A stretch of DNA of 40,029 nucleotides from Enterobacteria phage mEp390. Positions 3,299 through 39,643 of this stretch are shown one piece after another (the stretch's first letter is position 1; every line of letters begins with the position of its first letter). Under the pieces are notes generated by a model. That model did not search any database. It was not told the DNA's origin and was given only the letters and a program-made list of their open reading frames with translations. The DNA lies in sequence record NC_019721.1; one strand, 5' to 3'. The position numbers and the translations under genes are program-made.

Positions 3299-3976
3299 AT
3301 GCCTGAGATCGTAAAAACGCTGTCCTTCGACGAGACAGAAATCAAATTCACCGGTGACGGTAAACAGGGGATTTTTGAAGGCTACGCCTCTGTTTTTAAT
3401 AACACCGATTCCGATGGCGACATCATTCTGCCCGGGGCGTTTAAAAACGCACTGGCGAACCAGACCCGCAAAGTGGCGATGTTTTTCAACCACAAGACGT
3501 GGGAGCTGCCGGTTGGTAAATGGGACAGCCTGGCAGAAGACGAAAAAGGCCTGTATGTGCGCGGTCAACTTACCCCAGGGCACAGCGGCGCCGCCGACCT
3601 GAAAGCGGCAATGCAGCACGGTACGGTTGAAGGTATGTCGGTTGGCTTTTCCGTTGCGAAAGACGATTACACCATCATTCCAACAGGCCGCATTTTTAAG
3701 AATATCCAGGCTCTGCGCGAAATCAGCGTCTGCACTTTCCCCGCCAACGAACAGGCTGGCATCGCAGCCATGAAAAGTGTCGATGGCATTGAAACGATCC
3801 GTGATGTTGAGAACTGGCTGAGGGATTCAGTCGGCCTCACCAAATCACAGGCAGTAGGGCTAATAGCCCGGTTTAAGTCAGCGATTCGGAGCGAGTCCGA
3901 GGGCGACGGAAACGAAGCACAAATCAACGCTCTGCTTCAGAGCATCAAATCTTTCCCTTCTAATTTAGGTAATTAA
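3299..3976 (+). CDS. prohead protease (HK97 family)
   Basis: HK97-type prohead protease-like sequence; start placed at the ATG preceded by a GGGGG Shine-Dalgarno-like run, alternative start at 3287. Confidence 0.8.
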   Translation: MPEIVKTLSFDETEIKFTGDGKQGIFEGYASVFNNTDSDGDIILPGAFKNALANQTRKVAMFFNHKTWELPVGKWDSLAEDEKGLYVRGQLTPGHSGAADLKAAMQHGTVEGMSVGFSVAKDDYTIIPTGRIFKNIQALREISVCTFPANEQAGIAAMKSVDGIETIRDVENWLRDSVGLTKSQAVGLIARFKSAIRSESEGDGNEAQINALLQSIKSFPSNLGN

Positions 3977-3978
3977 TT

Positions 3979-5136
3979 ATGTCTGAACTCGCTCTCATTC
4001 AAAAAGCTATCGAAGAATCCCAGCAGAAAATGTCTCAACTTTTCGATGCGCAGAAAGCAGAAATCGAAAGCACTGGCCAGGTTTCCAAACAGCTGCAGTC
4101 CGACCTGGCAAAAGTGCAGGAAGAACTGACCAAATCCGGTGCGCGTCTCTTCGATCTGGAACAGAAACTGGCTTCCGGTGCTGAAAATCCGGGTGAGAAG
4201 AAATCCTTCTCTGAACGTGCTGCGGAAGAGCTCATCAAGTCATGGGACGGTAAACAGGGCACCTTCGACGCGAAGACGTTTAACAAGTCTCTCGGCAGTG
4301 ACGCTGATTCTGCTGGCTCACTGATCCAGCCGATGCAGATCCCCGGCATCATCATGCCAGGACTGCGCCGTCTGACCATTCGTGACCTGCTGGCGCAGGG
4401 CCGCATCTCCAGCAACGCTCTGGAATACGTCCGTGAAGAGGTGTTTACCAATAACGCCGACGTGGTGGCCGAGAAAGCGCTGAAGCCCGAATCGGATATC
4501 ACCTTCAGTAAGCAAACCGCGAACGTGAAGACGATCGCCCACTGGGTGCAGGCATCGCGTCAGGTTATGGACGATGCGCCAATGCTGCAGTCATACGTCA
4601 ACAACCGCCTCATGTACGGCCTGGCGCTGAAGGAGGAAGGTCAACTGCTGAACGGTGACGGTACCGGGGATAACATCGAAGGTTTGAACAAAGTGGCCAC
4701 CGCTTACGACACCTCGCTGAATGCCACTGGCGACACCCGCGCTGACATTATCGCTCACGCTATTTATCAGGTGACAGAGTCTGAGTTTAGCGCTTCCGGT
4801 ATTGTCCTGAACCCGCGGGACTGGCACAACATCGCGCTGCTGAAAGACAATGAAGGCCGCTATATCTTCGGTGGTCCTCAGGCGTTTACCAGCAACATCA
4901 TGTGGGGCCTGCCAGTGGTTCCGACTAAGGCGCAGGCCGCCGGCACCTTTACGGTGGGCGGTTTCGATATGGCCTCTCAGGTCTGGGATCGCATGAATGC
5001 CACCGTGGAAGTCAGCCGTGACGACCGCGACAACTTCGTGAAAAACATGCTGACCATTCTGTGCGAAGAGCGCCTGGCGCTGGCGCACTATCGCCCGGCG
5101 GCCATCATCAAGGGCACTTTCTCTTCTGGCTCATGA
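3979..5136 (+). CDS. major capsid protein (HK97 fold)
   Basis: 385-aa ORF immediately after protease, followed by a strong intrinsic terminator. Confidence 0.88.
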   Translation: MSELALIQKAIEESQQKMSQLFDAQKAEIESTGQVSKQLQSDLAKVQEELTKSGARLFDLEQKLASGAENPGEKKSFSERAAEELIKSWDGKQGTFDAKTFNKSLGSDADSAGSLIQPMQIPGIIMPGLRRLTIRDLLAQGRISSNALEYVREEVFTNNADVVAEKALKPESDITFSKQTANVKTIAHWVQASRQVMDDAPMLQSYVNNRLMYGLALKEEGQLLNGDGTGDNIEGLNKVATAYDTSLNATGDTRADIIAHAIYQVTESEFSASGIVLNPRDWHNIALLKDNEGRYIFGGPQAFTSNIMWGLPVVPTKAQAAGTFTVGGFDMASQVWDRMNATVEVSRDDRDNFVKNMLTILCEERLALAHYRPAAIIKGTFSSGS

Positions 5137-5142
5137 TGGAGG

Positions 5143-5164
5143 GGGCGGGGTAACCCGCCCTTTT
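5143..5164 (+). terminator. intrinsic terminator after major capsid gene
   Basis: GGGCGGG-GTAA-CCCGCCC hairpin followed by TTTT. Confidence 0.7.
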
Positions 5165-5169
5165 AACGT

Positions 5170-5496
5170 ATGGCGATAGATGTTCTCGATGTAATTGGCC
5201 TCCGCCTGTTCAAACAGCAGATTGAGTTTGAGGAAGACGACAGGGACGAGTTGATCACCCTGTACGCGCAGGCGGCTTTTGACTACTGCATACGCTGGTG
5301 CGATGAACCGGCATGGAAAGTTGCAGCTGATATTCCTGCAGCCGTTAAGGGCGCCGTTCTCCTTGTCTTTGCTGACATGTTTGAACACCGCACCGCGCAA
5401 AGCGAAGTACAGCTATATGAGAACGCTGCCGCCGAACGCATGATGTTCATCCATCGCAACTGGCGCGGTAAATCTGAACCTGAGGAGGGCTCCTGA
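5170..5496 (+). CDS. head-tail connector protein (gp6-like)
   Basis: 108-aa ORF in conserved position after capsid gene. Confidence 0.6.
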   Translation: MAIDVLDVIGLRLFKQQIEFEEDDRDELITLYAQAAFDYCIRWCDEPAWKVAADIPAAVKGAVLLVFADMFEHRTAQSEVQLYENAAAERMMFIHRNWRGKSEPEEGS

Positions 5497-12309: not shown

Positions 12310-13020
12310 ATGCGGCAGAAAACCATTGATGCCATTATGGCGCATGCTGCAGCTGAATATCCTCGCGAGTGCTGCGGCGTGGTGGCGCAGAAAAGCCGTG
12401 TTGAACGTTATTTCCCGTGCCGCAATCTTGCCACGGAACCGGAGGACAATTTTGTCCTCTGCCCGGAAGATTACGCAGCTGCTGAGGACTGGGGCACGGT
12501 GATCGCCATCGCTCACAGTCACCCTGATGCCACGACACAGCCGAGCGAACTGGATAAAGCGCAATGCGATGCAACGCTTTTACCCTGGCATATTGTGAGC
12601 TGGCCGGAGGGTGATTTACGCACCATCCAGCCGCGTGGAGAACTGCCGTTGCTGGAGCGTCCGTTTGTGCTTGGACACTTCGACTGCTGGGGGCTGGTAA
12701 TGAGCTATTTTCGGCAAACGCATGGTATCGAGCTCCACGATTACCGGGTGGATTATCCCTGGTGGGAAAACGACTATCCGGACAACTTCTATCATGATTG
12801 CTGGTACGAGTGCGGTTTCCGTGAATTCGACGGGCCACCGAAACCAGGCGATATGGTGATCATGCAGGTCCAGGCTGATAAGTGGAACCACGCGGGGATC
12901 CTGCTGCAGGGTAATATGCTGCTGCACCACCTGTACGGACATTTGAGCCAGCGCGTGCCATATGGTGGCTACTGGCAGGAAAGAACAATGAAGATTTTAC
13001 GTTACAAATCTCTGTGCTAA
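12310..13020 (+). CDS. K: tail assembly protein K (JAB/MPN plus NlpC/P60-like)
   Basis: 236-aa ORF with H-S-H-P-D metalloprotease-like motif (AIAHSHPD) and Cys-containing C-terminal half. Confidence 0.8.
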   Translation: MRQKTIDAIMAHAAAEYPRECCGVVAQKSRVERYFPCRNLATEPEDNFVLCPEDYAAAEDWGTVIAIAHSHPDATTQPSELDKAQCDATLLPWHIVSWPEGDLRTIQPRGELPLLERPFVLGHFDCWGLVMSYFRQTHGIELHDYRVDYPWWENDYPDNFYHDCWYECGFREFDGPPKPGDMVIMQVQADKWNHAGILLQGNMLLHHLYGHLSQRVPYGGYWQERTMKILRYKSLC

Positions 13021-13049
13021 CCTTTTGCAAAACCAAAGGGGATAGGGAT

Positions 13050-13460
13050 ATGAAAAAAACATTATTGGCACTTTCTTTGTTAATTATGGCTGGTTGTTCT
13101 ACAGAGCCAGTTCTCCCGCAATATGCAAAAGAAGTGTCAGCACCAAAAGAATTTCAACAGAAAACAAACACAACTGCCGTAACTATCATTCGCGATAAAG
13201 GTTTTGTCGCTGGTGGATGCGCTATAACAGCCTATATCAATGGTAAATATTTGGCGGAACTTGATACAGGGGAAAAAGTCACTGCTTTCCTTAACCCTGG
13301 CGATGTGTTGATAGGGGCAGGATTTGCCGGGAAAGGCCTATGTAATGGTGCGCCTAAAAAGGAGCGTGAATTTTCAATTAAAGAAAATACTCCACGAGTT
13401 TTACGGATATTTATCGATCAGAGTGGGAACGTTGACATACTCCCGATGTCGATAAACTAG
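13050..13460 (+). CDS. lipoprotein of unknown function (moron between K and I)
   Basis: MKKTLLALSLLIMAGC signal peptide with lipobox; AAAGGGGA RBS; AT-rich; own terminator. Confidence 0.6.
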   Translation: MKKTLLALSLLIMAGCSTEPVLPQYAKEVSAPKEFQQKTNTTAVTIIRDKGFVAGGCAITAYINGKYLAELDTGEKVTAFLNPGDVLIGAGFAGKGLCNGAPKKEREFSIKENTPRVLRIFIDQSGNVDILPMSIN

Positions 13461-13480
13461 AGTTAATTTTAATAGACAAA

Positions 13481-13503
13481 GGCCACCTCCGGGTGGCTTT
13501 TTT
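13481..13503 (+). terminator. intrinsic terminator after lipoprotein moron
   Basis: GCCACC-TCCG-GGTGGC hairpin followed by T6. Confidence 0.7.
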
Positions 13504-13516
13504 ATTGGGGTGATTC

Positions 13517-14107
13517 ATGTCAGATGTAATGACTCGCATTGAGCTCGGCGGCGTGCTTGGGAAGACTTTTGGTAAAACACATCACCGCTCAATAAGCACA
13601 ACTCAAGAAGCTTGCAAAGCCTTAGCTGCTACGATTAATGGTTTCGAAAAATTCATGAATACGAGTAAGCAAAGGGGGCTTTCTTATGCGGTTTTTCGCG
13701 GTAAGAAAAATATTGGCATTGATGAGTTAGGCTTTCCTGTCAAGGGCGAGGTTATCAGAATAATGCCTGTGCCGATCGGAAGTAAAAAAGCAGGTGTATT
13801 ACAAACTATTTTAGGCGCGGTATTGGTGGCTGTCGGGGTGGTTTTGAATTTCACGCCCTTTGCTGGAGCATCACCATTTTTCTATCAAGCTGGTGGAGCT
13901 TTGATCCTTGGAGGGGTTGTCCAAATGCTATCACCTCAACCAACCGGATTAGCCAGCAAACAAAGCGCAGATAACCGTGCATCATATGCATTCGGTGGTG
14001 TAACAAACACCGCGGCGCAAGGCTACCCGGTACCGCTCCTTTATGGCCGTCGGCGGATAGGCGGAGCGATTATTTCTGCCGGAATTTATGTCGAAGATCA
14101 GCAGTAG
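13517..14107 (+). CDS. I: tail assembly protein I
   Basis: 196-aa ORF with hydrophobic central segment, lambda gpI position between K and J. Confidence 0.8.
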   Translation: MSDVMTRIELGGVLGKTFGKTHHRSISTTQEACKALAATINGFEKFMNTSKQRGLSYAVFRGKKNIGIDELGFPVKGEVIRIMPVPIGSKKAGVLQTILGAVLVAVGVVLNFTPFAGASPFFYQAGGALILGGVVQMLSPQPTGLASKQSADNRASYAFGGVTNTAAQGYPVPLLYGRRRIGGAIISAGIYVEDQQ

Positions 14108-14125
14108 ATAAATAACCTTTTTTCT

Positions 14126-14149
14126 GGCCACCTTCGGGTGGCTTTTTTT
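14126..14149 (+). terminator. intrinsic terminator after gene I
   Basis: GCCACC-TTCG-GGTGGC hairpin followed by T7; near-identical to the 13481 hairpin. Confidence 0.7.
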
Positions 14150-14160
14150 ATGGGCGCAAT

Positions 14161-17100
14161 ATGGCTACAGATAAAGTGTTAAAGGGCCGCAAGGGCGGCA
14201 GCTCAAGTTCCCGAACCCCTACCGAACAGCCTGATGATCTGCAATCTGTAGCGAAGGCAAAAATCCTCGTTGCGCTTGGGGAAGGGGAGTTTGCAGGGCA
14301 GCTAACCGGCAAAGATATCTACCTGGACGGAACGGCGCTGGAGAATGCCGACGGTTCCCAAAACTTTAGCGGCGTGACGTGGGAGTTTCGCGCGGGAACG
14401 CAGGCGCAAAAATATATTCAGGGTATTCCCGGTACCGAAAACGAAATCAGCGTAGGAACTGAGGTATCAAGCGCTACAGCATGGACGCGCACCTTTACCA
14501 ATACGCAGCTTTCAGCAGTTCGCCTGCGTCTGAAATGGCCTTCGCTTTTCAAACAGGAGGACGACGGCGATCTGGTGGGTTACTCGGTCAATTATGCGAT
14601 TGACCTGCAGACGGACGGCGGCACATGGCAGACGGTACTTAATACCAGCGTGACCGGCAAAACGACGTCTGGTTATGAGCGCAGCCACCGTATCGATTTA
14701 CCGCAGGCTGGCAGCACCTGGACAATACGTCTGCGTAAGATTACCTCTGATGCCAACAGCGCGAAGATCGGTGACACGATGACGCTGCAGAGCTTCACCG
14801 AGGTGATTGACGCCAAACTACGTTACCCCAACACCGCGCTGCTCTACATCGAATTCGACTCAAGCCAGTTCAACGGCTCTATTCCCCAAATTTCATGCGA
14901 ACCGCGCGGCCGCGTTATCCGCGTTCCAGATACCTACGACCCTGAAACCCGCACTTATAGCGGTACATGGACCGGTGCGTTTAAGTGGGCATGGACGGAT
15001 AATCCTGCGTGGATTTTTTACGACCTGGTTGTTTCTGACCGGTTCGGCCTCGGTCACCGTTTGACTGCTGCGAATATCGATAAATGGACGCTTTATCAGG
15101 TTGCTCAGTATTGTGATCAGATGGTACCAGACGGCAAAGGGGGCAACGGTACCGAACCACGTTATACCTGCAACGTGTACATTCAGGACCGGAACGACGC
15201 CTACACAGTCCTGCGTGATTTTGCCGCTATCTTCCGAGGCATGACCTACTGGGGCGGGGATCAGATTGTGGCCCTGGCTGACATGCCGCGCGATGTTGAT
15301 TACAGCTACACGCGCGCTAACGTTGTTGGCGGTCGCTTCACCTATTCGAGCAGCACCACGAAAAGCCGCTACACCACAGCGCTGGTTTCATGGTCAGACC
15401 CGGGTAACGCTTATGCCGACGCGATGGAGCCGGTTTTTGAGCAGGCGCTGGTGGCGCGATACGGCTTCAATCAGCTGGAAATGACAGCCATCGGCTGCAC
15501 CAGGCAGTCAGAAGCGAACCGAAAGGGGCGCTGGGGTATTCTCACCAACAACAAGGATCGCGTTGTTTCGTTTGATGTCGGGCTGGACGGCAACATTCCG
15601 CAGCCGGGCTACATCATCGCCGTGGCAGACGAGCTGCTATCCGGAAAGGTTATGGGCGGCCGCATCAGCGCCGTTAACGGTCGCGTTATCAAACTTGACC
15701 GCGTGGCAGATGCAGCAGCGGGTGATCGCCTTATTCTCAACTTACCATCCGGAGTGTCGCAGAGCAGGACCATTCAGGCCGTAAACGGGGAATCAGTCAC
15801 GGTCACCACGGCATACAGTGAGACGCCACAGGCCGAAGCTGTTTGGGTGGTTGAATCTGACGAGCTCTATGCGCAGCAGTATCGTGTTATCAGCGTTTCC
15901 GAAAAGGATGATGGCACGTTCTCGATTACTGGCGCATGGCACGACCCGGATAAATATGCCCGTATCGATACCGGAGCCATTATCGACCAGCGGCCGGTGA
16001 GCGTGATCCCGCCTGGTAACCAGTCGCCGCCTGCGAACATCGAGATCAGCTCGTTTTCCGTGGTTCAGCAGAATATCAGCGTCGAAACGATGCGCGTGAG
16101 CTGGGACCAGGCGCAGAACGCTATCGCCTATGAAGCGCAGTGGCGCCGCAACGACGGGAACTGGGTTAACGTGCCGCGCAGCTCCACAACGTCATTCGAC
16201 GTCCCCGGAATTTATGCCGGGCGCTACCTGGTGCGCGTGCGCGCAATCAATGCCGCAGAAATTTCATCCGGATGGGGCTATTCAGAAGAGAAAACGCTGA
16301 CGGGTAAAGTGGGCAATCCACCGAAGCCGGTTGGCTTCATCGCTTCTGAAAACGTGGTTTTCGGTATCGAGCTGAATTGGGGATTCTCGGCGAATACCGA
16401 CGACACGCTGAAGACGGAGATTCAGTACAGCCTGACCGGGACAGGGGACGATGCGATGCTGCTGGCCGATGTGCCATATCCACAACGAAAATATCAGCAG
16501 ATGGGACTGAAGGCGGGACAGATTTTCTGGTACCGCGCGCAGCTGGTCGACAGAACAGGCAACGAGTCCGGGTATACGGATTGGGTGCGAGGACAGGCCA
16601 GCATCGACGTTTCAGACATCACCGATGTGATCCTGGAGGAAATTAAAGACTCCGACACATTCAAAGATCTGATTGAGAACGCGGTGGACAGCAATGAAAA
16701 AATTGCTGGCATGGCTGACGAAATCAAAAACCATGCCGACGAACTTGAGCAGCAGGCGAAAGACATCCAGGAGAACGCTGACGGGTTGGCGCAGGCCGAA
16801 GTGAAGATAGACGAGATTTCTGTGTCGATCGACGGCATGACAGGAGGCGTGAAGAATTCGGCTATTGCCATTATTCAGAATGGGCTGGCGCAGGTTGCCA
16901 CTCGCAAAAGGCTATCCGCAACGGTCGCGGGGAACAGCGCTCAGTTGGATCGTATTGATGAGGTAATCGTTAACGAGAAGGAGGCAACGGCGCGTGCTCT
17001 ACTGAGCCTGCAAACGAACGTCAACGGTAATACGGCATCCATCAACAGCCTGAGCCAGACGGTTTCGAATTATCAGCAGTCTACAGCCACGCAGATAAAT

Positions 17101-17610
17101 GCTATTACGGCGACAGTCAATGGACATACTTCCTCTATAACCACGAACGCCCAAGCCATTGCGAACGTAAACGGCCAGCTCAGCGCGATGTACAACATCA
17201 AAGTTGGGGTAACGAGTAACGGCCAGTATTACGCCGCAGGCATGGGGATCGGGGTGGAGAATACGCCATCAGGGATGCAGTCGCAGGTAATCTTCCTGGC
17301 CGACCGTTTTGCCGTTACATCCCAGGCTGGCAGCACTGTGTCCTTGCCGTTCGTGATCCAGAACGGGCAGACATTTATCAATGATGCTTTCTTCCGTGAT
17401 GCGAGTATTCAGTTCGGTAAAATTACGGATTCTCTCCAGTCTGATAATTATGTTGCCGGAAGTGCTGGCTGGCGTTGGGGTAAAGACGGAACGATGCAGA
17501 ACTACGGGAGCGACAGTTCCGGAGGCATGAAGCAGACTAACGTCACCATCAGCATTCGTGATGCTAACAGGCTCCGTGTTCAGATAGGAAAACTTACAGG
17601 AGTGTTTTAA
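14161..17610 (+). CDS. J: host specificity protein J (central tail fibre)
   Basis: 1149-aa ORF in gpJ position after I. Confidence 0.9.
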   Translation: MATDKVLKGRKGGSSSSRTPTEQPDDLQSVAKAKILVALGEGEFAGQLTGKDIYLDGTALENADGSQNFSGVTWEFRAGTQAQKYIQGIPGTENEISVGTEVSSATAWTRTFTNTQLSAVRLRLKWPSLFKQEDDGDLVGYSVNYAIDLQTDGGTWQTVLNTSVTGKTTSGYERSHRIDLPQAGSTWTIRLRKITSDANSAKIGDTMTLQSFTEVIDAKLRYPNTALLYIEFDSSQFNGSIPQISCEPRGRVIRVPDTYDPETRTYSGTWTGAFKWAWTDNPAWIFYDLVVSDRFGLGHRLTAANIDKWTLYQVAQYCDQMVPDGKGGNGTEPRYTCNVYIQDRNDAYTVLRDFAAIFRGMTYWGGDQIVALADMPRDVDYSYTRANVVGGRFTYSSSTTKSRYTTALVSWSDPGNAYADAMEPVFEQALVARYGFNQLEMTAIGCTRQSEANRKGRWGILTNNKDRVVSFDVGLDGNIPQPGYIIAVADELLSGKVMGGRISAVNGRVIKLDRVADAAAGDRLILNLPSGVSQSRTIQAVNGESVTVTTAYSETPQAEAVWVVESDELYAQQYRVISVSEKDDGTFSITGAWHDPDKYARIDTGAIIDQRPVSVIPPGNQSPPANIEISSFSVVQQNISVETMRVSWDQAQNAIAYEAQWRRNDGNWVNVPRSSTTSFDVPGIYAGRYLVRVRAINAAEISSGWGYSEEKTLTGKVGNPPKPVGFIASENVVFGIELNWGFSANTDDTLKTEIQYSLTGTGDDAMLLADVPYPQRKYQQMGLKAGQIFWYRAQLVDRTGNESGYTDWVRGQASIDVSDITDVILEEIKDSDTFKDLIENAVDSNEKIAGMADEIKNHADELEQQAKDIQENADGLAQAEVKIDEISVSIDGMTGGVKNSAIAIIQNGLAQVATRKRLSATVAGNSAQLDRIDEVIVNEKEATARALLSLQTNVNGNTASINSLSQTVSNYQQSTATQINAITATVNGHTSSITTNAQAIANVNGQLSAMYNIKVGVTSNGQYYAAGMGIGVENTPSGMQSQVIFLADRFAVTSQAGSTVSLPFVIQNGQTFINDAFFRDASIQFGKITDSLQSDNYVAGSAGWRWGKDGTMQNYGSDSSGGMKQTNVTISIRDANRLRVQIGKLTGVF

Positions 17611-17912
17611 TGGCTTGGGGAATTCAGACTTGGGACGCCAACGGCATCCCGAACAACTACGGTATCAAACCCGTATCAGTGGTAGGACGTATTCAGCTTT
17701 CCGAGGGGCAAACCTCGGGCAACTGGTCCTTTACCATTCCGGCAGGGATGAAGGTCGGATTTGCGGTGTCCCTTGATAAAGGCGCGGTCTCGGTGGGCCG
17801 ACGCATTATCGCTAACGGGAACACCATCACACTCAGCACTGCCAGCGAAGTTGGTATAGGTAATTATCCGGCCTCGGAATGTGAACTGGTGGTCTTCGTG
17901 GAGAATGCATGA
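17610..17912 (+). CDS. hypothetical protein downstream of J
   Basis: 100-aa ORF, start overlaps J stop (TAATG). Confidence 0.45.
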   Translation: MAWGIQTWDANGIPNNYGIKPVSVVGRIQLSEGQTSGNWSFTIPAGMKVGFAVSLDKGAVSVGRRIIANGNTITLSTASEVGIGNYPASECELVVFVENA

Positions 17913-18589
17913 TGGCAGATTATGGCGCACTGATTGCGCTGGAAAGCGGAAATCCGTTCATAACTCCTCAGTCAACGCCGTTTTGTCTGTACAGAAAGGT
18001 AGTGGTTAATTCTTCAGCAAACGGGGCATATCACGGAGCCTCTGCAACGGTCGCGCTGGATGCCTCTTATCCGGCAATGGTTTTTTGCAAAACGAGTGAT
18101 ACCGCTCAACCAACTACGGTTGGAGCATCCAGGTCAGGAGGAAATATTCTCGTTGGCTCCAGCAATGCTTATGGTCAGTCACATACTCTGACGGCGTACA
18201 TCTTTGCCATCTTTCCACAAACGTTGCCCGACTGGGGATTTGCTGTCTGGGATAAAGACGGAAAGCTGGTACTGACAAACGAAAGCCGCGTGCTTACTGA
18301 CCTCGTTACTGTCGGAACACCAGGAGCCTCAACGGGAGGGATAAACATTGATGTTACGTTGCAGGGTAGTTATGCGGTAGCGCCTGCAATTCTGGGCTCT
18401 CAAATCATACAGAACAACAATACCAGGCCTCCAACAATCGTGAATATAACAGCCTATGCAGGGTGCCGTTTTAACGGTTCGTCGACCAGAATAACTGCCG
18501 CGCCTTCGACAACAGCTACTGGTTCTGCAGCAGGAGGGACAACCACCGGGATAGCATTGACGGCCATCAACACCGCAGCCTATGACTGA
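17909..18589 (+). CDS. hypothetical protein (possible fibre-associated, Thr/Ala/Gly-rich C-terminus)
   Basis: 226-aa ORF, translationally coupled to upstream ORF. Confidence 0.45.
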   Translation: MMADYGALIALESGNPFITPQSTPFCLYRKVVVNSSANGAYHGASATVALDASYPAMVFCKTSDTAQPTTVGASRSGGNILVGSSNAYGQSHTLTAYIFAIFPQTLPDWGFAVWDKDGKLVLTNESRVLTDLVTVGTPGASTGGINIDVTLQGSYAVAPAILGSQIIQNNNTRPPTIVNITAYAGCRFNGSSTRITAAPSTTATGSAAGGTTTGIALTAINTAAYD

Positions 18590-18700: not shown

Positions 18701-18934
18701 ATGAAAAGGCTAATTATCAGCATGGCGAGCGCTTTAATGCTGTCTGGTTGTGCTGGTGTACTTGAGAAACAGGAACCTATTTGCAGCGGCACGGCCATTG
18801 TAGGCGGTCAGGAAAATACCGTTATGATTTACGGCGTTCGAAAACAAAACAACCAGACGCAATACCGCGCCGGTTATCCCTTTAACTGGCGTTGGGTAGG
18901 CGCAAATACATTCACTGGCACTACCTGTAAATAA
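18701..18934 (+). CDS. small lipoprotein (possible Cor-like superinfection exclusion protein)
   Basis: 77-aa ORF with signal peptide and LSGC lipobox; located after tail genes; followed by terminator. Confidence 0.5.
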   Translation: MKRLIISMASALMLSGCAGVLEKQEPICSGTAIVGGQENTVMIYGVRKQNNQTQYRAGYPFNWRWVGANTFTGTTCK

Positions 18935-18953
18935 CCAACCCATTCGAATACAA

Positions 18954-18976
18954 CCTCGCTCCGGCGGGGTTTTTTA
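18954..18976 (+). terminator. intrinsic terminator
   Basis: CCTCGC-TCCG-GCGGGG hairpin followed by T7. Confidence 0.6.
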
Positions 18977-21663: not shown

Positions 21664-22674
21664 TTACTGCCCCCCAACCACCGGTACTACAGATATTTTG
21701 CGGTTGTATCTTGCAGTCTGCGAAGCATTTTTGTGGCCTGATATTTCTTGTTTCTCATGCAGCGTACCTTCCAAATCAGATATCCCTTTGGCTTTCAGGT
21801 CATGGAAAGTAAAGTCAAATTCGATCTCAGGGAATTTCTCAGCGGCTAACTTTTTCGCCTTCATCCACTGCGCATTAAAAGCATCTCGTGTATATCTCGA
21901 TCCTGATGGCTGGTGAATAACATACATGCTAACCATTCCTTCTTTGAGAGGTAAGGAATCAGCCAAGGAGATTGCACGCCTTAAGCGATCGGTCCATTTT
22001 TTGATTTGACTCACTGCTGTCTTACTTTGCTGAATCATGATTCCTTCATGAAGAAGCTGCGTTTTTTTTAGATCAAGAATATCCCCCTGTCTAGCGCAGC
22101 ATAGATAGGCAACCTCCATAGCGATTTTTACAGGAATAGTTGCAATACTGTACAGAGCATCATATTCGTTATCAAAAACGTAACGAGTCCTGGCCTTTTC
22201 TTTAAACTGCTTTACCCCTTGGCAAGGGTTCATCTTCACTTTTCCACGCTCATATGCCCACCTGAATACCCTCGACATAAACGCTTTTTCTCGGTTCGCC
22301 TGAACTCTGCTCTTAACCCCCCTCTTATCCATATACTTTCTGATGTGCTCCGGCTTAATGTTTTCTGGTTTCATTTTGCCGAAAACGACATTTACCTTTG
22401 AACCATATTTCCGGTAATCCTTTCTGGTTTCTGTTGCCAGATCATGAAAGTCACCAGAGTTAAAAAACTCTTCGCAAAGAGCATGAAAGTTGGAACCAAC
22501 CTTTATATCGTTGATGAAGTTTTCATACGCTGCCCAGACCTGAGACTTTGTGAGATCGAGGTTGCACAATCTCACAGTTCTCCCGTCTGGCGTTCTGAAC
22601 TCATAAGCAGATTTGCCTCGACGCACGCGGGGCGGCATCCAGTTATCTTCTGGGTTTTTGCGGATTCTGGGCAT
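21664..22674 (-). CDS. int: tyrosine-type site-specific integrase
   Basis: 336-aa ORF with C-terminal HxxR and RY catalytic-region motifs (HDLKAKG, ARYNRK); adjacent to att core. Confidence 0.88.
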   Translation of the reverse strand: MPRIRKNPEDNWMPPRVRRGKSAYEFRTPDGRTVRLCNLDLTKSQVWAAYENFINDIKVGSNFHALCEEFFNSGDFHDLATETRKDYRKYGSKVNVVFGKMKPENIKPEHIRKYMDKRGVKSRVQANREKAFMSRVFRWAYERGKVKMNPCQGVKQFKEKARTRYVFDNEYDALYSIATIPVKIAMEVAYLCCARQGDILDLKKTQLLHEGIMIQQSKTAVSQIKKWTDRLRRAISLADSLPLKEGMVSMYVIHQPSGSRYTRDAFNAQWMKAKKLAAEKFPEIEFDFTFHDLKAKGISDLEGTLHEKQEISGHKNASQTARYNRKISVVPVVGGQ

Positions 22675-34857: not shown

Positions 34858-35125
34858 TCCGAGTGCGATGGTGAACGCCGTTATTTGCGGCGTAATCGTC
34901 CTTGTCCTGATGTTCTACCAGCGAGGTGGGGCGAGACATCGCCCACTGATCTCGCTGATGGCTTATTTCACGGTTCTGGTATACGCCAGCGTTCCTTTCC
35001 GTTATCTGTTCGGCCTGTACCATGAATCGCACTGGTTTGTGGTGCTGGTGAACGTCCTGATATGCGCTGCCGTTCTCTGGGCTCGGGGAAACGTGGCGCG
35101 TCTGGTTGATGCACTGAGGCACTAA
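34844..35125 (+). CDS. holin-like membrane protein
   Basis: 93-aa product from ATG after GGAGGAGG RBS; two to three hydrophobic segments. Confidence 0.5.
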
Positions 35126-35751
35126 TGAACCAATCACAATTTCAAAAGGCGGCTGGGCTAAGCGCCGAGTTAGCTGCGCGCTGGTTTCAGCCAGTCACCG
35201 ATGCGATGAAAGAATTCGGCATTACCAAGCCGGTAGACCAGGCCATGTTCATTGCGCAGGTTGGGCATGAATCAGCTGGCTTCACTCTCCTGGTGGAGAG
35301 CTTCAATTACCGGATTGCCGCACTAGTTAACTTCATTCGTGCAGGACGCCTTACCGCAGAACAGGCAAACGCGTTAGGCCGCCGCCCTGAAGAACGGACA
35401 TTACCGATTGAGCGCCAGCGAGCCATTGCGAACCTGGTATACAGCAAACGCATGGGTAACAACGCACCCGGCGACGGCTGGTTATACCGTGGGCGTGGGC
35501 TTATCCAGATTACCGGCCTCAACAACTACCGTGATTGTGGAAACGGCCTGAAAGTTGATCTGGTTAAGCAACCTCAGTTGCTCGCTGAAGACGTATACGC
35601 GGCAAGAAGTGCGGCATGGTTCTTTGTCACTAAGGGCTGCCTTAATCATTCTGGCGACCTGATGCGCGTGACGAAGATTATCAACGGCGGAACGAACGGA
35701 CTGGAAGATCGTCGCGCTCGCTTCGGTCAGGCCAAAACAGTACTGGTATGA
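35125..35751 (+). CDS. endolysin, GH19 chitinase-like lysozyme
   Basis: 208-aa ORF with GH19-like motifs ([20 protein letters not shown]) following holin genes. Confidence 0.8.
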
Positions 35752-35758
35752 GGTTGAT

Positions 35759-36034
35759 ATGGGTTTAGAAACGATAATCGGTATTGCTGCACTTGTTATG
35801 GCTGCTATCGCTGGTGCCTTTGGCATTGGCCATTCACGCGGCACCAGCAAAGCGGAAGCCAAAGCAGACCAGCAGCGCACCGAAGAAAAGGCCGCAGCCA
35901 CTGAAGCAGTAGCCGAACGCCGGGTAGAAGCAACGAAAGAGGCCAGCAATGTACAGCAGACTGTTAACCACATGCCTGATGACGATGTTGATCGCGAGCT
36001 GCGTGACACGTGGAAGCGTCCCGGTGGTGGTTGA
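35759..36034 (+). CDS. i-spanin (Rz-like)
   Basis: 91-aa ORF with N-terminal TM segment and charged helical remainder. Confidence 0.55.
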   Translation: MGLETIIGIAALVMAAIAGAFGIGHSRGTSKAEAKADQQRTEEKAAATEAVAERRVEATKEASNVQQTVNHMPDDDVDRELRDTWKRPGGG

Positions 36035-36176
36035 TACCGCCTGTGACTGGGTAAAGCCAATCTACCTGACCGATCATGATATTGACGTTATGGACCGCCA
36101 GACGAAGAAAGACATCCTGGCGCATAACAAAGCGTGGCAGGCGAACTGCCAGAAAGAAACCAGAGCCCCGCAATAG
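35949..36176 (+). CDS. o-spanin (Rz1-like lipoprotein), overlapping i-spanin in another frame
   Basis: 75-aa ORF with LIASC lipobox and Pro/Cys content; overlapped arrangement typical of Rz/Rz1. Confidence 0.55.
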   Translation: MYSRLLTTCLMTMLIASCVTRGSVPVVVDTACDWVKPIYLTDHDIDVMDRQTKKDILAHNKAWQANCQKETRAPQ

Positions 36177-36723: not shown

Positions 36724-38181
36724 ATGCAGGTCACTATTGATGGTGTCCCATACGCACCTGCCTGCGAAATTTCATCGCGGATTGGCATTGCAATAACGAC
36801 ACACCAGCGCGCCGACGTTCTGAAAAGAGCGCTCGAACAGCACATGAAGCACCTGCCAGCTGGTGCGCTGGTGGTGGTTGTGGATGATGGTTCAAAACCT
36901 GCAGCGGTAGTTCCCCACGGCGTGCAGCTGCTTCGCCATGAAACATCACTCGGCATTGTTGCTTCGAAGAACGCCAGCCTGTCAGCCCTGATGGATGCCG
37001 GGTGCGAGCATCTTTTTCTGTGGGATGATGATGCCTGGCCTATCGCCGATAACTGGCATCTTCCCTACATCGAATCACCCGAGCCACACCTGGCTTACCA
37101 GTTTCTCGATCTTGCTGGCCGCAATAAGCTGAATGACCTTTCGGTGCTTTACCGTGACGATCAGCATGTGGCGTATACCGGGCAGCGCGGCGTTATGCTG
37201 TATTACCACCGTAGTGCCATCGAGAAGGTGGGCGGATTTGATCCGGTATACGGTCGCGGCATGTACGAACACAGCGACCTTGCCCTGCGCATCCATAACG
37301 CCGGAATGACTACGTGGGCTTACGCTGATGCGGCCGGTTCAGAAAAGCTGATTCATTCTCTTGATGAGCATGAGGCTGTAGAGCGTTCCGTACCGAAACC
37401 AGACCGGCAGGCGCTGGTGGAACGTAACGTTAAAATCCACAACGAACGGCGTGATGCCGGGTTTACCGGTTACGTGGAGTATCGACGGCAGCGCGACGTG
37501 GTTATTACTACTCTGCTGACCAGCCAGCCTGACCCGCAGCGCGGTACGAAAATGACCGCCTCTCCTGACATGCTGGCTAAATGGGCGTCCTCGCTTCGGA
37601 ATTGTGGACGTATTGCGCTGGTGGATGAACTACAGACGGCACCGGCAGACGTTGAGCTGTATCGCGTTCCTGACGTGAAGATGAATGTCTACTTCAGGCG
37701 CTGGCTGCATATCTGGCAGCACCTGCGAGATCACCCTGAATACCGGTTCGTCTGGTGTACTGATGGTACCGATGTCGAAATGCTTCGCGCGCCGTGGGAA
37801 GAAATGGAACCCGGTAAGGTGTATGTCGGTTCTGAACCGAAGACCTACGCCGACTCCTGGGCGAAACAGAATCATCCTGAGCGTATCTATAAGGAATTCA
37901 TTGAAGCGCACCGCGGCGATGTGATGCTGAACGCTGGTCTGCTGGGTGGCACCCGCGCTGATGTAATGGCGTTCGCTCACGGCATCATCCGTCTTTACTA
38001 CCGGATAGAGAGTTATCGTTTCTGGAAGAAAGAACAGGCTGGCGCTGCGGTGGGCGATATGATCGCTTTTGGCATTGTTGCTAAATCGTTTGGCGATCGA
38101 ATTGTCACCGGCCCCCGCATCCACACTATTTTTAAGTCCGATGGTGTCGGTAAAGAGTACGCTTTCTGGCGCCATAAATAA
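36724..38181 (+). CDS. glycosyltransferase family 2-like protein with additional C-terminal domain
   Basis: 485-aa ORF; GT-A signatures IAITTHQRADVLKRALEQ, VVVVDDGS, DDD, and VGGFD...YEHSDLALRIHNAG. Confidence 0.6.
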   Translation: MQVTIDGVPYAPACEISSRIGIAITTHQRADVLKRALEQHMKHLPAGALVVVVDDGSKPAAVVPHGVQLLRHETSLGIVASKNASLSALMDAGCEHLFLWDDDAWPIADNWHLPYIESPEPHLAYQFLDLAGRNKLNDLSVLYRDDQHVAYTGQRGVMLYYHRSAIEKVGGFDPVYGRGMYEHSDLALRIHNAGMTTWAYADAAGSEKLIHSLDEHEAVERSVPKPDRQALVERNVKIHNERRDAGFTGYVEYRRQRDVVITTLLTSQPDPQRGTKMTASPDMLAKWASSLRNCGRIALVDELQTAPADVELYRVPDVKMNVYFRRWLHIWQHLRDHPEYRFVWCTDGTDVEMLRAPWEEMEPGKVYVGSEPKTYADSWAKQNHPERIYKEFIEAHRGDVMLNAGLLGGTRADVMAFAHGIIRLYYRIESYRFWKKEQAGAAVGDMIAFGIVAKSFGDRIVTGPRIHTIFKSDGVGKEYAFWRHK

Positions 38182-38221: not shown

Positions 38222-38734
38222 ATGGCCGCAAGAAAGACGATTGAAGAGAGATTTTGGATAAAGGTTGATAAAAAAGGTGAAGATGATTGTTGGTGCTGGT
38301 GTGCCGCAACAGTGAAGGGCGGTAGCGGAGAAAGAAAGTTAACTTATGGGGTTATTGGTACAGATCGAAATGCCTCTGGTAACCCAAAGGTTCTTTTAGC
38401 CCACCGGGTTTCTTGGGAAATGCATAATGGGCCAATACCGGAAGGTAAGTATATAGACCATATCTGTCACAACACCTTATGTGTGAACCCACATCACCTC
38501 CGACTTGTATCACCAAAGCAAAACGCAGAGAACCAATGTGTTGTTGATTCCCGCTCAACATCTGGATATCGAGGCGTATCGTGGAATAAACAAAAAAATA
38601 AATGGCTTGCTTACTGCAATCATGAAGGAAAGCGTTATCACGCTGGGTTCCATGAAACAGCAGAGTTGGCAGCTGAAGCTGCACGTCGAGCCCGAAACAA
38701 GGTGTTTACCCATAATGATGCAGACAGATTTTAA
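38222..38734 (+). CDS. HNH homing endonuclease with AP2-type DNA-binding domain
   Basis: 170-aa ORF; HNH-like Cys/His region (HICHNTLCVNPHHL) and AP2-like GYRGVSWNKQKNKWLAY...GFHETAELAAEA. Confidence 0.75.
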   Translation: MAARKTIEERFWIKVDKKGEDDCWCWCAATVKGGSGERKLTYGVIGTDRNASGNPKVLLAHRVSWEMHNGPIPEGKYIDHICHNTLCVNPHHLRLVSPKQNAENQCVVDSRSTSGYRGVSWNKQKNKWLAYCNHEGKRYHAGFHETAELAAEAARRARNKVFTHNDADRF

Positions 38735-39305
38735 GTTTGTTGTGGTTGGCCATCACTCTCGCTTAAGCCATGCGCAACGTCTTGCCGCGTTGCTGGATGC
38801 TCATCTGCTTATTGATGACGGTGACCACGGCGCGAACTGGAATCATCGGCGCGCTATCGAGTGGGCAGTTGAGCAGCCTTGCCGTGTAGTGGTATTGGAG
38901 GACGACGCGCTGCCAGTACATGGATTCACCGAAAAGGTAACTGACTGGCTGGCTCGTTTCCCTGACGACATGCTGAGCTTTTATCTCGGCACCGGCCGAC
39001 CACCGCAGTATCAGAAAGAGATAGCCGACTGGCTGATTGTTGCAGATAAGTCACGAGCAGACTTCATCACACTTCAGAGGCTGATACACGGGGTCTGCTA
39101 CAGCATCCCACCTCAGCACCTGAACCGTGTTCTGTCTCGATGGCACAGCAGCAAGCCTGCTGATTATGCCGTTGGTGATGCCTATGGCGGCGCTGTGGTT
39201 TATCCGTGTTACTCGCTGGTGGATCACGCCGACATGCAGACGGTTGAGCGTCATCCTGACAACGAGCCGAGGACAGAACGCCGCCGCGCATGGAGACTGG
39301 CATGA
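38715..39305 (+). CDS. putative GT-A fold glycosyltransferase-like protein (GT25-like)
   Basis: start at ATG (MMQTDFK); pattern FVVVGHHSR...DDGDHG...RVVVLEDDALPVHGF resembles GT25/GT-A cores; weak assignment. Confidence 0.4.
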   Translation: MMQTDFKFVVVGHHSRLSHAQRLAALLDAHLLIDDGDHGANWNHRRAIEWAVEQPCRVVVLEDDALPVHGFTEKVTDWLARFPDDMLSFYLGTGRPPQYQKEIADWLIVADKSRADFITLQRLIHGVCYSIPPQHLNRVLSRWHSSKPADYAVGDAYGGAVVYPCYSLVDHADMQTVERHPDNEPRTERRRAWRLA

Positions 39306-39643
39306 ACAAAGAGCCACGCGTATATGGCAGCCGATGGGATAAGGCCCGTCTGCGTTTCCTGCAGCAGCACCCACTATGTGTGATGTGCGAGCAGCAGGGG
39401 CGCATTACCCCGGCAACGGTGGTTGACCATATCGAGCCCCACAAACTCAAAGATGCGCTTAAGTCAGGTAACCCGCTGGCCATATCTAAAGCACAGCTCC
39501 TGTTCTGGAGTAAAGATAACTGGCAGCCACTGTGCAAAGCACATCATGACTCAACGAAACAGAGAATGGAGAAGAGCGGCGCGGTAATAGGCTGTGATGC
39601 CAACGGCTACCCGCTCGATCCTGCGTCTCACTGGAGCACGTAA
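39302..39643 (+). CDS. HNH endonuclease (packaging-associated, HK97 gp74-like position)
   Basis: start MNKEPRV after GGAGA RBS; Cys/His pairs CVMCEQ...HIEPH...CKAHHD; sits just upstream of terminase if the genome is circularised. Confidence 0.75.
   Translation: MNKEPRVYGSRWDKARLRFLQQHPLCVMCEQQGRITPATVVDHIEPHKLKDALKSGNPLAISKAQLLFWSKDNWQPLCKAHHDSTKQRMEKSGAVIGCDANGYPLDPASHWST

Follow-up and report, generated by a model that had tools for sequence, protein, structure and literature searches.

Results

A Lipoprotein Gene between Tail Genes K and I

The window (the whole 40,029-nucleotide stretch of record NC_019721.1) comprises the complete genome of mEp390, a temperate lambdoid phage of the HK97/HK022-like kind. 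The terminase and head genes lie at its left end, followed by the tail genes in the order H-M-L-K-I-J. Gene K occupies positions 12310–13020 on the plus strand and encodes a phrog_30 protein with JAB/MPN (PF14464, 7.7e-21) and NlpC/P60 (PF00877, 9.1e-22) domains. The tail-tip gene I, at 13517–14107 on the same strand, encodes a 196-residue allele that matches Lambda_tail_I (PF06805, 1.8e-5) and phrog_32, and J starts at 14161. Further to the right are the genes for Cor (18701–18934; NF047972, 4e-41), which has its own terminator on the 3' side, and the integrase (21664–22674), and then a lysis cassette of endolysin, Rz and Rz1 (35125–36176).

Between K (left) and I (right), an open reading frame on the plus strand runs from an ATG at 13050 to a TAG stop ending at 13460 and encodes a protein of 136 residues, with a mature part of about 121 residues. 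An earlier, sequence-only reading of this DNA had given 13021–13510 for a lipoprotein gene at this junction, an interval that takes in the intergenic region and the terminator along with the gene. A Shine-Dalgarno-like AAGGGGA (13036–13042, plus strand) lies 7 nt 5' of the ATG; it is the same in mEpX2, HK140 and CharmingMan, and near-identical in LMessi and Fraca. The same reading had called this ribosome binding site (RBS) strong. The element is indeed purine-rich, but it is an imperfect Shine-Dalgarno sequence.

Positions 13050–13097 (plus strand) encode a signal peptide and lipobox (MKKTLLALSLLIMAG directly before the cysteine), with Cys16 as the predicted lipidation site. The N-terminus is MKKTLLALSLLIMAGC followed by STEP. 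Two lysines precede a hydrophobic core of ten residues, after which the lipobox leads to Cys16, and this layout of basic n-region, h-region and lipobox (MKK-TLLALSLLIM-AG-C16), with the cysteine falling among residues 15–35, is that of a bacterial lipoprotein signal of the Lgt/LspA/Lol pathway. The lipobox fits a regular expression of the PROSITE PS51257 type, and Pfam LPAM_1 gave a weak match (E = 0.28). G15-C16-S17 is invariant across 40 close homologs, and C16 is invariant in 69 distant homologs as well, which makes the lipobox call stronger than one obtained via a predictor. The 136-residue lipoprotein gene proposed from the sequence was thus upheld by the reading frame, the lipobox match and the invariant Gly-Cys-Ser. 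The residue at +2 is serine and not aspartate, which by the +2 rule predicts sorting to the outer membrane, and we infer that the protein sits in the inner leaflet.

Composition and Transcription Signals

The lipoprotein gene has a GC content of 41.1% and a GC3 of 32.8%, compared to 54.6% and 61.6% for K and 54.6% and 62.8% for J; the mean GC content of the whole window is 51.7%, and a sliding profile agrees with the gene-by-gene values. The gene is compositionally foreign, as expected from its earlier description as AT-rich. The first 420 nt of gene I have a GC content of 44.8% and a GC3 of 39.3%, and the low-GC tract therefore runs on into gene I.

A consensus scan found no sigma-70 promoter 5' of the lipoprotein gene that reached threshold. 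By eye, a candidate weak promoter with an extended −10 element (TTTACG-16-TGcTAACCT) could be placed at 12996–13023 on the plus strand, below the scan threshold and overlapping the K stop codon. On the 3' side, an intrinsic terminator is predicted at 13481–13509 (plus strand), consisting of GGCCACC-TCCG-GGTGGC followed by TTTTTTATT, with the stem at 13482–13497, the loop TCCG and a T-run. With its flanking A/T pairs, the hairpin has a predicted folding energy of −16.2 kcal/mol. The terminator scan reported the hairpin at 13482–13497 on the minus strand only, and the T-run on the plus strand is plain in the sequence.

A 29-nt copy of this terminator is found 645 nt away in the I–J intergenic region (14126–14154, plus strand; −12.7 kcal/mol), where it matches the first at 26 of 29 positions and is kept in relatives that lack this lipoprotein gene. 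Both the gene's own terminator and the near-identical hairpin after gene I were therefore where the sequence-only reading had put them, and what had to be given up was its proposal that the repeat marks acquisition of a cassette: the second copy is the I–J terminator, it occurs in relatives without the gene, and the two copies flank gene I. We accordingly rejected the repeated terminators as cassette ends. The consensus scan for terminator-like sites gave 11 observed against 9.6 expected, i.e., no enrichment, although these two hairpins are individually strong. An Rfam search of positions 12500–14500 produced nothing above threshold and only sub-threshold terminator-like matches.

The Lipoprotein Family

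A profile search confirmed the lipoprotein assignment through an essentially full-length match to phrog_890, annotated "lipoprotein" (E = 7.5e-46; residues 1–134 on profile positions 1–135 of 136). Nothing significant was returned by the Pfam, NCBIfam or PADLOC scans, and PADLOC gave no family at E ≤ 1 for either the mEp390 lipoprotein or the four alternative K–I cargo proteins described below. A word-indexed search yielded 53 close relatives at 56–95% identity; those named come from Citrobacter, Klebsiella, Enterobacter, Atlantibacter, Cedecea, Rahnella and Siccibacter, and all carry the annotation "hypothetical". In a profile search against 1.84 billion representatives, 1,110 family clusters were found at E ≤ 1e-3, typically lipoproteins of 135–146 residues, so that the family amounts to about 1,100 clusters at 50% identity.

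DUF2846 (PF11008) was matched by 19 of 69 distant family members at E ≤ 0.01 (best E = 2.1e-5), which identifies the family as a divergent relative of DUF2846. The mEp390 lipoprotein and its close relatives gave no match to the DUF2846 model even at E ≤ 1, short of the gathering threshold. The two share their size, the lipobox and a β-rich pattern, V-x-V-x-R-D-x-G ... G-x-x-x-A-x-L. On these profile comparisons, the mEp390 protein appears to belong to a related sister group rather than to be a curated member of DUF2846. DUF2846, which is not known to have a function, is mentioned in passing in PMC10792529. Our literature search found no experimental work on the phrog_890-type family, nor any on the phages CharmingMan, Fostie and LMessi.

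In the 26 loci where K, the lipoprotein gene and I could all be compared without gaps, the lipoprotein gene had a dN/dS of 0.105 (Nei-Gojobori) and a dN of 0.20, against a dN of 0.07 for K (about a threefold difference) and 0.13 for I (1.5-fold), a sign of fast protein evolution; these figures are rough, because synonymous sites are saturated in many pairs. A ratio of this size indicates purifying selection on the lipoprotein gene, and together with the full-length phrog_890 match it establishes that this is a real gene.

The AlphaFold2 model of the lipoprotein is confident (pLDDT 87.7, pTM 0.80) and shows an all-β sandwich. C57 and C98 are near-invariant across homologs, which suggests a periplasmic disulfide, and there is a conserved C-terminal motif, LRIFIDQSGNVDILP. 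Searches of the PDB with sequence profiles gave signal-peptide-level noise only, and fold searches of the PDB gave no significant match, the model being a generic β-sandwich without a functional homolog there.

Cargo at the K–I Junction in Related Phages

The K–I and I–J morons of HK022 and HK97 were reportedly described by Juhala et al. in 2000. A moron in the Hendrix/Juhala definition is an extra gene of differing base composition, placed where related genomes of the same gene order have nothing or something else, that has its own terminator and its own sigma-70 promoter and is expressed from the prophage. At the mEp390 locus, the junction is variable among relatives, the composition differs from that of the neighboring genes, and a factor-independent terminator is predicted. 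In lambda, K and I overlap and there is no insert, as implied by the earlier statement that the two genes are normally adjacent; in the HK97/HK022 lineage, however, the junction is usually occupied by cargo, and to that extent the statement did not hold. HK022 has gp20 between K and I, annotated as "moron gene product", while HK97 leaves 320 nt between K and I, in which a putative terminator lies, and has additional "moron products" in its I–J interval.

The mEp390 lipoprotein gene shares with these HK022 and HK97 morons (GenBank AF069308 and NC_002167) the K–I slot, the character of a small extra gene absent from lambda, and a GC hairpin with T-run about 10 nt 5' of the I start codon. HK022 gp20 differs in being an unrelated 74-residue transmembrane protein (phrog_5031) and no lipoprotein, and the 3' end of K differs as well. 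The same type of 74-residue membrane protein is found in HK446, while mEpX2 and HK140 carry a 113-residue lipoprotein (phrog_914) at K–I, and LMessi and Fraca carry two lipoproteins (phrog_2320 and phrog_914). Across these relatives (mEpX2/HK140, LMessi/Fraca and HK446), four unrelated cargo families occupy the junction. In other prophages, the slot contains SocA_Panacea, DUF3800, Imm_superinfect and HNH-endonuclease genes; Imm_superinfect and Panacea are neighbors of a defense type.

The gene itself is sparsely distributed. It was present in two of the 38 phage records that matched the region, CharmingMan (98.5%) and Fostie (91.7%), where it is annotated "lipoprotein"; in none of 5,426 complete E. 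coli genomes; and in three of 185,579 species-representative genomes (Kluyvera, Enterobacter and Superficieibacter). Phages in which K and the N-terminus of J are 85–97% identical to those of mEp390 are viable without the gene or with unrelated cargo. The comparison of K–I junctions, in which relatives have other cargo or none, bears out the view of the gene as a moron-like insertion, and its rarity in phage records and E. coli genomes refutes the opposing possibility of a conserved structural component in close relatives. It is thus very probably an accessory cassette that encodes a lipoprotein and occupies a recognized moron slot. The family is an already annotated one, and its occupation of the classical K–I slot is a fairly ordinary example of its kind; on present evidence, it is a well-behaved instance of the phenomenon described in 2000.

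Boundaries of the Cassette

Alignment of the K–I junctions showed that mEp390, CharmingMan, mEpX2 and HK140 are near-identical from the 3' end of K through the spacer and RBS into the signal peptide, apart from scattered single-base differences, about four of which fall in the first 48 nt of the lipoprotein gene. The last ~20 codons of K and the spacer are common to phages with other lipoprotein cargo. The phrog_914 lipoproteins (gp19 of mEpX2 and HK140, and LMessi CDS0039) share with the mEp390 gene the slot 5' of I, the K 3' end, the spacer, the RBS and a near-identical signal peptide (MKKTLLTLSLIIMAGC), but have an unrelated mature domain and belong to a different PHROG. The sequences of mEp390 and mEpX2/HK140 part directly after the Cys codon, and the BLAST alignment of the mEp390 lipoprotein with gp19 spans residues 1–44 only, the mature domains being unrelated. 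The left recombination joint can therefore lie within the region coding for the signal peptide, and, judging from these alignments, it is either at the 3' end of K or at the lipobox codon.

On the right, a GC hairpin with a T-run closes each of the K–I cargo types, about 10 nt short of the start of I. The right joint is inside gene I, as seen from the alignment of I alleles and from the base composition: the 5' two-thirds of I is low in GC and co-travels with the lipoprotein gene, whereas the C-terminal third is near-invariant in all alleles compared. The lipoprotein comes with the 196-residue allele, whose central segment reads VVLNF..TPFAGASPFFYQ, in mEp390, CharmingMan and two prophages, one of Citrobacter and one of Rahnella. 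This allele is the usual partner, although lipoproteins at 65–79% identity also pair with I proteins of 202 or 211 residues.

Position of the Family in Other Genomes

The genomic position of the gene was surveyed in 54 IMG/VR loci containing relatives at 49–100% identity; these represent related lineages and not independent events. K was upstream and I downstream in 50 of the 54. The lipoprotein gene started 32–39 nt after K in 45 loci and ended 41–74 nt before I in 47, and the extra genes (0.3–2.6 kb) present in six loci were always on the K side of the lipoprotein gene and never on the I side. The genes upstream in two loci (L136 and L075) were considered as I homologs and rejected, as was a tandem gene of 140 residues in another (L134) as a paralog of the lipoprotein.

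Homologs at ~30–39% identity likewise occupy the K–I junction of the Pseudomonas phages vB_Pae_CF127a and phiAH14a and of two further prophages. The "lipoprotein" genes p83 of phiAH14a and p21 of phiAH14b are homologous to that of mEp390 (~32% identity), and p83 lies between K and I, directly 5' of I. They differ in coming from another host genus and, in phiAH14b, in the order of the genes: this satellite has no other tail genes, and its gpI homolog (PF06805) is directly followed by the lipoprotein homolog. The phiAH14b gpI homolog, p20, is 74% identical to the I protein of phiAH14a, and the idea that p20 is a cargo partner and not gpI was rejected on that basis. The lipoprotein family has a long-standing residence beside gene I.

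The close association with I raises the possibility that the lipoprotein is tied to gpI as a partner or antagonist, for example by blocking membrane insertion of gpI from incoming phages that share the tail type, regardless of the receptor they use. gpI is the plug of the virion tail tip, and a published proposal has its hydrophobic helices entering the outer membrane (PMC11101478, PMC12617516). The near-constant distance to I and the confinement of extra genes to the K side would fit such a link, as would the retention of the position in distant homologs of Pseudomonas phages and other prophages, the pairing in phiAH14b, the co-travel of the I allele and the uncoupling from the receptor-binding end of J (see below). 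However, the adjacency may simply reflect an inherited old insertion together with linkage, the IMG/VR loci being related; lipoprotein types pair with both 196- and 202-residue I alleles, and some family members are far from any I gene. On balance, we regard the link to gpI as improbable. Slightly less probable again is a specific form of it, in which the lipoprotein would be a receptor-independent exclusion factor acting after adsorption by intercepting the H1/H2 helices of gpI or the C-terminus of the tape-measure protein, so that a lipoprotein in the inner leaflet would prevent formation of the trans-envelope channel. If true, interception of this kind would explain why the position by I is kept in both enterobacterial and Pseudomonas phages, with a satellite included, as well as the co-travel of the variable hydrophobic part of I and the absence of coupling to J.

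Family members do occur elsewhere. HK639 has one after the tape-measure gene, and early, replication or immunity regions contain others: that of SSU5 lies in the replication region, and of those in the loci of P0057 and P0098, one lies beside a KilA-N gene and one within a repressor and early-gene region. Another is found near the amidase/lysis and tail-fiber genes of a different phage type (P0183), and one is beside arsenic-resistance and ankyrin genes in an apparently chromosomal setting (P0128). These scattered locations indicate that the family moves between positions, as morons do.

This last member bears on the question of whether the lipoprotein could be a lysogenic-conversion factor, an outer-membrane lipoprotein expressed from the prophage that helps the host for reasons unrelated to phage, like lambda Bor and Lom; serum or stress resistance, adhesion and envelope homeostasis would be among the options. 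The anatomy of the lipoprotein fits such a role equally well, cellular, non-phage members such as P0128 show that the fold has a use on the host side, and morons with functions of this sort are documented (PMC3594210). Yet phages account for most of the members sampled, which come from an Antarctic Pseudomonas phage and from soil and plant Enterobacterales among others, and this argues against a virulence-specific role. Cargo in the same slot of other prophages resembles phage defense (Imm_superinfect, Panacea), and the promoter scan gave no site 5' of the gene. We consider a conversion factor unlikely.

Comparison with Cor, Llp and Spanins

Cor of phi80, N15 and HK022 and Llp of T5 are, like the mEp390 lipoprotein, phage outer-membrane lipoproteins encoded in or near tail modules, each gene being followed by a terminator. 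Both act at the outer membrane from its inner leaflet (Cor, PMC3594210; Llp, bioRxiv 10.64898/2026.03.26.714494). The mEp390 lipoprotein is about twice their size and has no sequence similarity to Cor. BLASTP against the Cor protein of mEp390 itself gave no alignment, and NCBIfam (NF047972) did not match the K–I lipoprotein; homology to Cor was rejected for lack of a BLASTP alignment. Llp was compared through PDB searches only, in which its entry (8a60) was matched in the signal peptide alone at E = 0.51, so that these searches lend no support to homology with Llp.

The genomic arrangement also differs. Cor and Llp are encoded beside the receptor-binding protein, whereas the mEp390 lipoprotein gene adjoins I instead, about 4 kb upstream of the region encoding the J C-terminus. 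In ten loci with lipoproteins at least 90% identical and 8-kb flanks that reached the end of J, the J C-termini were 34–87% identical to that of mEp390, with the same spread among phages whose lipoproteins are 95–100% identical, and cor was found in eight of the ~34 loci long enough to tell. Since the J C-termini vary and cor is sporadic, the lipoprotein is not a receptor-matched blocker like Cor or Llp. If it excludes other phages, the absence of coupling to the receptor-binding domain of J implies that it acts on a target other than the phage's own primary receptor, or at a stage later than adsorption. mEp390 already has Cor, an observation that counts against the lipoprotein as an exclusion factor.

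A role in assembly or lysis of the phage's own virions, whether structural, chaperone or spanin-like, might be suspected from the embedding of the gene in the tail operon, from the position kept across distant phages and from weak PHROG matches to Rz-like spanins. These matches have E = 0.07 and extend no further than residue ~50, so that they take in the signal peptide and only the beginning of the mature part, and mEp390 has its own, separate endolysin, Rz and Rz1 genes; an o-spanin (Rz1-like) identity was rejected for these reasons. Furthermore, close relatives are viable without the gene, and an exported lipoprotein cannot work in cytoplasmic tail assembly. A requirement for assembly or lysis is consequently most improbable.

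Discussion

The best overall explanation of the locus, to which we assign a probability of roughly 45%, is an accessory moron lipoprotein of the K–I slot that acts by exclusion at the level of the cell envelope. Taken as a function in itself, superinfection exclusion at the envelope seems the most likely one, but we propose it tentatively. Tail-cluster lipoproteins of other coliphages have been shown experimentally to exclude phages (PMC11893012), and the authors of the phiAH14a study proposed a Cor-like exclusion role for the p83/p21 homolog (PMC4936722).

According to this exclusion model, the lipoprotein would be an accessory, non-structural product of the cargo slot, displaying a disulfide-stabilized β-sandwich domain in the periplasm. 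From its location inside the late tail operon, we infer that the gene is expressed together with the tail genes in the lytic cycle, antiterminated polymerase then running past the terminator of the lipoprotein gene. In a lysogen, the gene might be weakly transcribed on its own, and its terminator, backed by the I–J terminator, would then stop read-through into I and J. The altered cell envelope would block infection by other phages and thereby protect the progeny, possibly through binding, on the periplasmic side, of an outer-membrane component or of an incoming tail-tip or ejection protein.

If exclusion by the lipoprotein is correct, it would provide a function for a large DUF2846-related family that is found repeatedly in the tail modules of temperate Enterobacterales and Pseudomonas phages. 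A single phage would then carry, beside Cor, a second envelope layer of exclusion that is not matched to the receptor. The boundaries of the cassette, for their part, point to an exchange of cargo in which unrelated mature domains are swapped behind a common RBS and signal peptide and before a terminator. This arrangement of RBS and signal peptide on one side and terminator on the other offers a practical guide for recognizing other cargo genes in phages.

Probable cargo exchange at the K–I junction

The lipoprotein gene between tail genes K and I (13050–13460, +) belongs to phrog_890, and the lipoprotein genes at the same junction in mEpX2 and HK140 belong to the unrelated family phrog_914. 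The RBS and the signal-peptide DNA are nevertheless nearly identical between the two, with about 4 substitutions in 48 nt when 13050–13097 of the window is compared with 1650–1697 of the mEpX2 locus (L002) and with HK140 (L003). Divergence starts directly 3′ of the lipobox Cys codon. This pattern of shared signal-peptide DNA followed by divergence points to recombination within the signal-peptide coding region, by which one cargo would have been swapped for another.

Composition and allele comparison covered the first two-thirds of tail-tip gene I, at its 5′ end (13517–13936, +). Like the lipoprotein gene, this part is low in GC (its GC3 is 39%), and it codes for a distinct allele of a glycine-rich hydrophobic segment, VVLNF..TPFAGASPFFYQ, which is the counterpart of helices H1/H2 of lambda gpI. 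A very similar segment, LSFTPFAAASPFLYQ, is found in gpI of phiAH14b, a 16.8 kb P4-like satellite phage of Pseudomonas that lacks tail genes apart from this true gpI homolog. In phiAH14b (L077, 2338–3402), a lipoprotein homolog lies directly 3′ of the gpI homolog, reversing the order found in helper-type phages. A 16-nt inverted repeat (13351–13366 and 14034–14049), of which one arm lies in the lipoprotein gene and the other, 667 nt away, in gene I, is 81% complementary and probably due to chance.

Other prophages carry different inserts at the tail-tip junctions (2297–3504 in L071, 2912–3882 in L012 and 4580–5461 in L070). Occupants of the K–I slot include a DUF3800 gene with an Imm_superinfect (PF14373) gene, and a SocA_Panacea gene with a 133-aa ORF; one insert between I and J gave a faint putAbiC match. 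The K–I and I–J junctions have the look of small islands that carry defence genes or other cargo. At a further locus (L057/L117, IMGVR_UViG_2791355283_000004, 3501–5340), the lipoprotein gene matches at 100%, but only over residues 1–83, and I starts about 1.4 kb further on; the gene may have been interrupted by an insertion, perhaps an IS.

Cor and other genes outside the junction

Downstream of J lies cor (18701–18934, +; NF047972, E = 4e-41; phrog_1119), which encodes the Cor superinfection-exclusion lipoprotein, has a low GC of 47% and is followed by its own terminator (18952–18971). With the K–I gene counted in, the tail region of the phage therefore holds two distinct cargo genes for lipoproteins. 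The interval between J and cor (17610–18589, +) holds a 100-aa ORF matching phrog_557 (“outer membrane protein”) and a 226-aa ORF that falls in the moron category and matches phrog_425 (“membrane associated protein”); in the set of related loci, both are restricted, or nearly so, to those bearing cor.

A 485-aa glycosyltransferase gene (36724–38181, +; phrog_1579, moron/host-takeover category) is likely another lysogenic-conversion gene, possibly acting in surface polysaccharide modification. It is located downstream of the lysis cassette. One of two HNH-endonuclease-like ORFs (38222–38734 and 39290–39643, both +; phrog_3593 and phrog_2323) may encode the HNH partner of the terminase. Both ORFs lie close to the right-hand genome end, adjoining the packaging genes of the left end.
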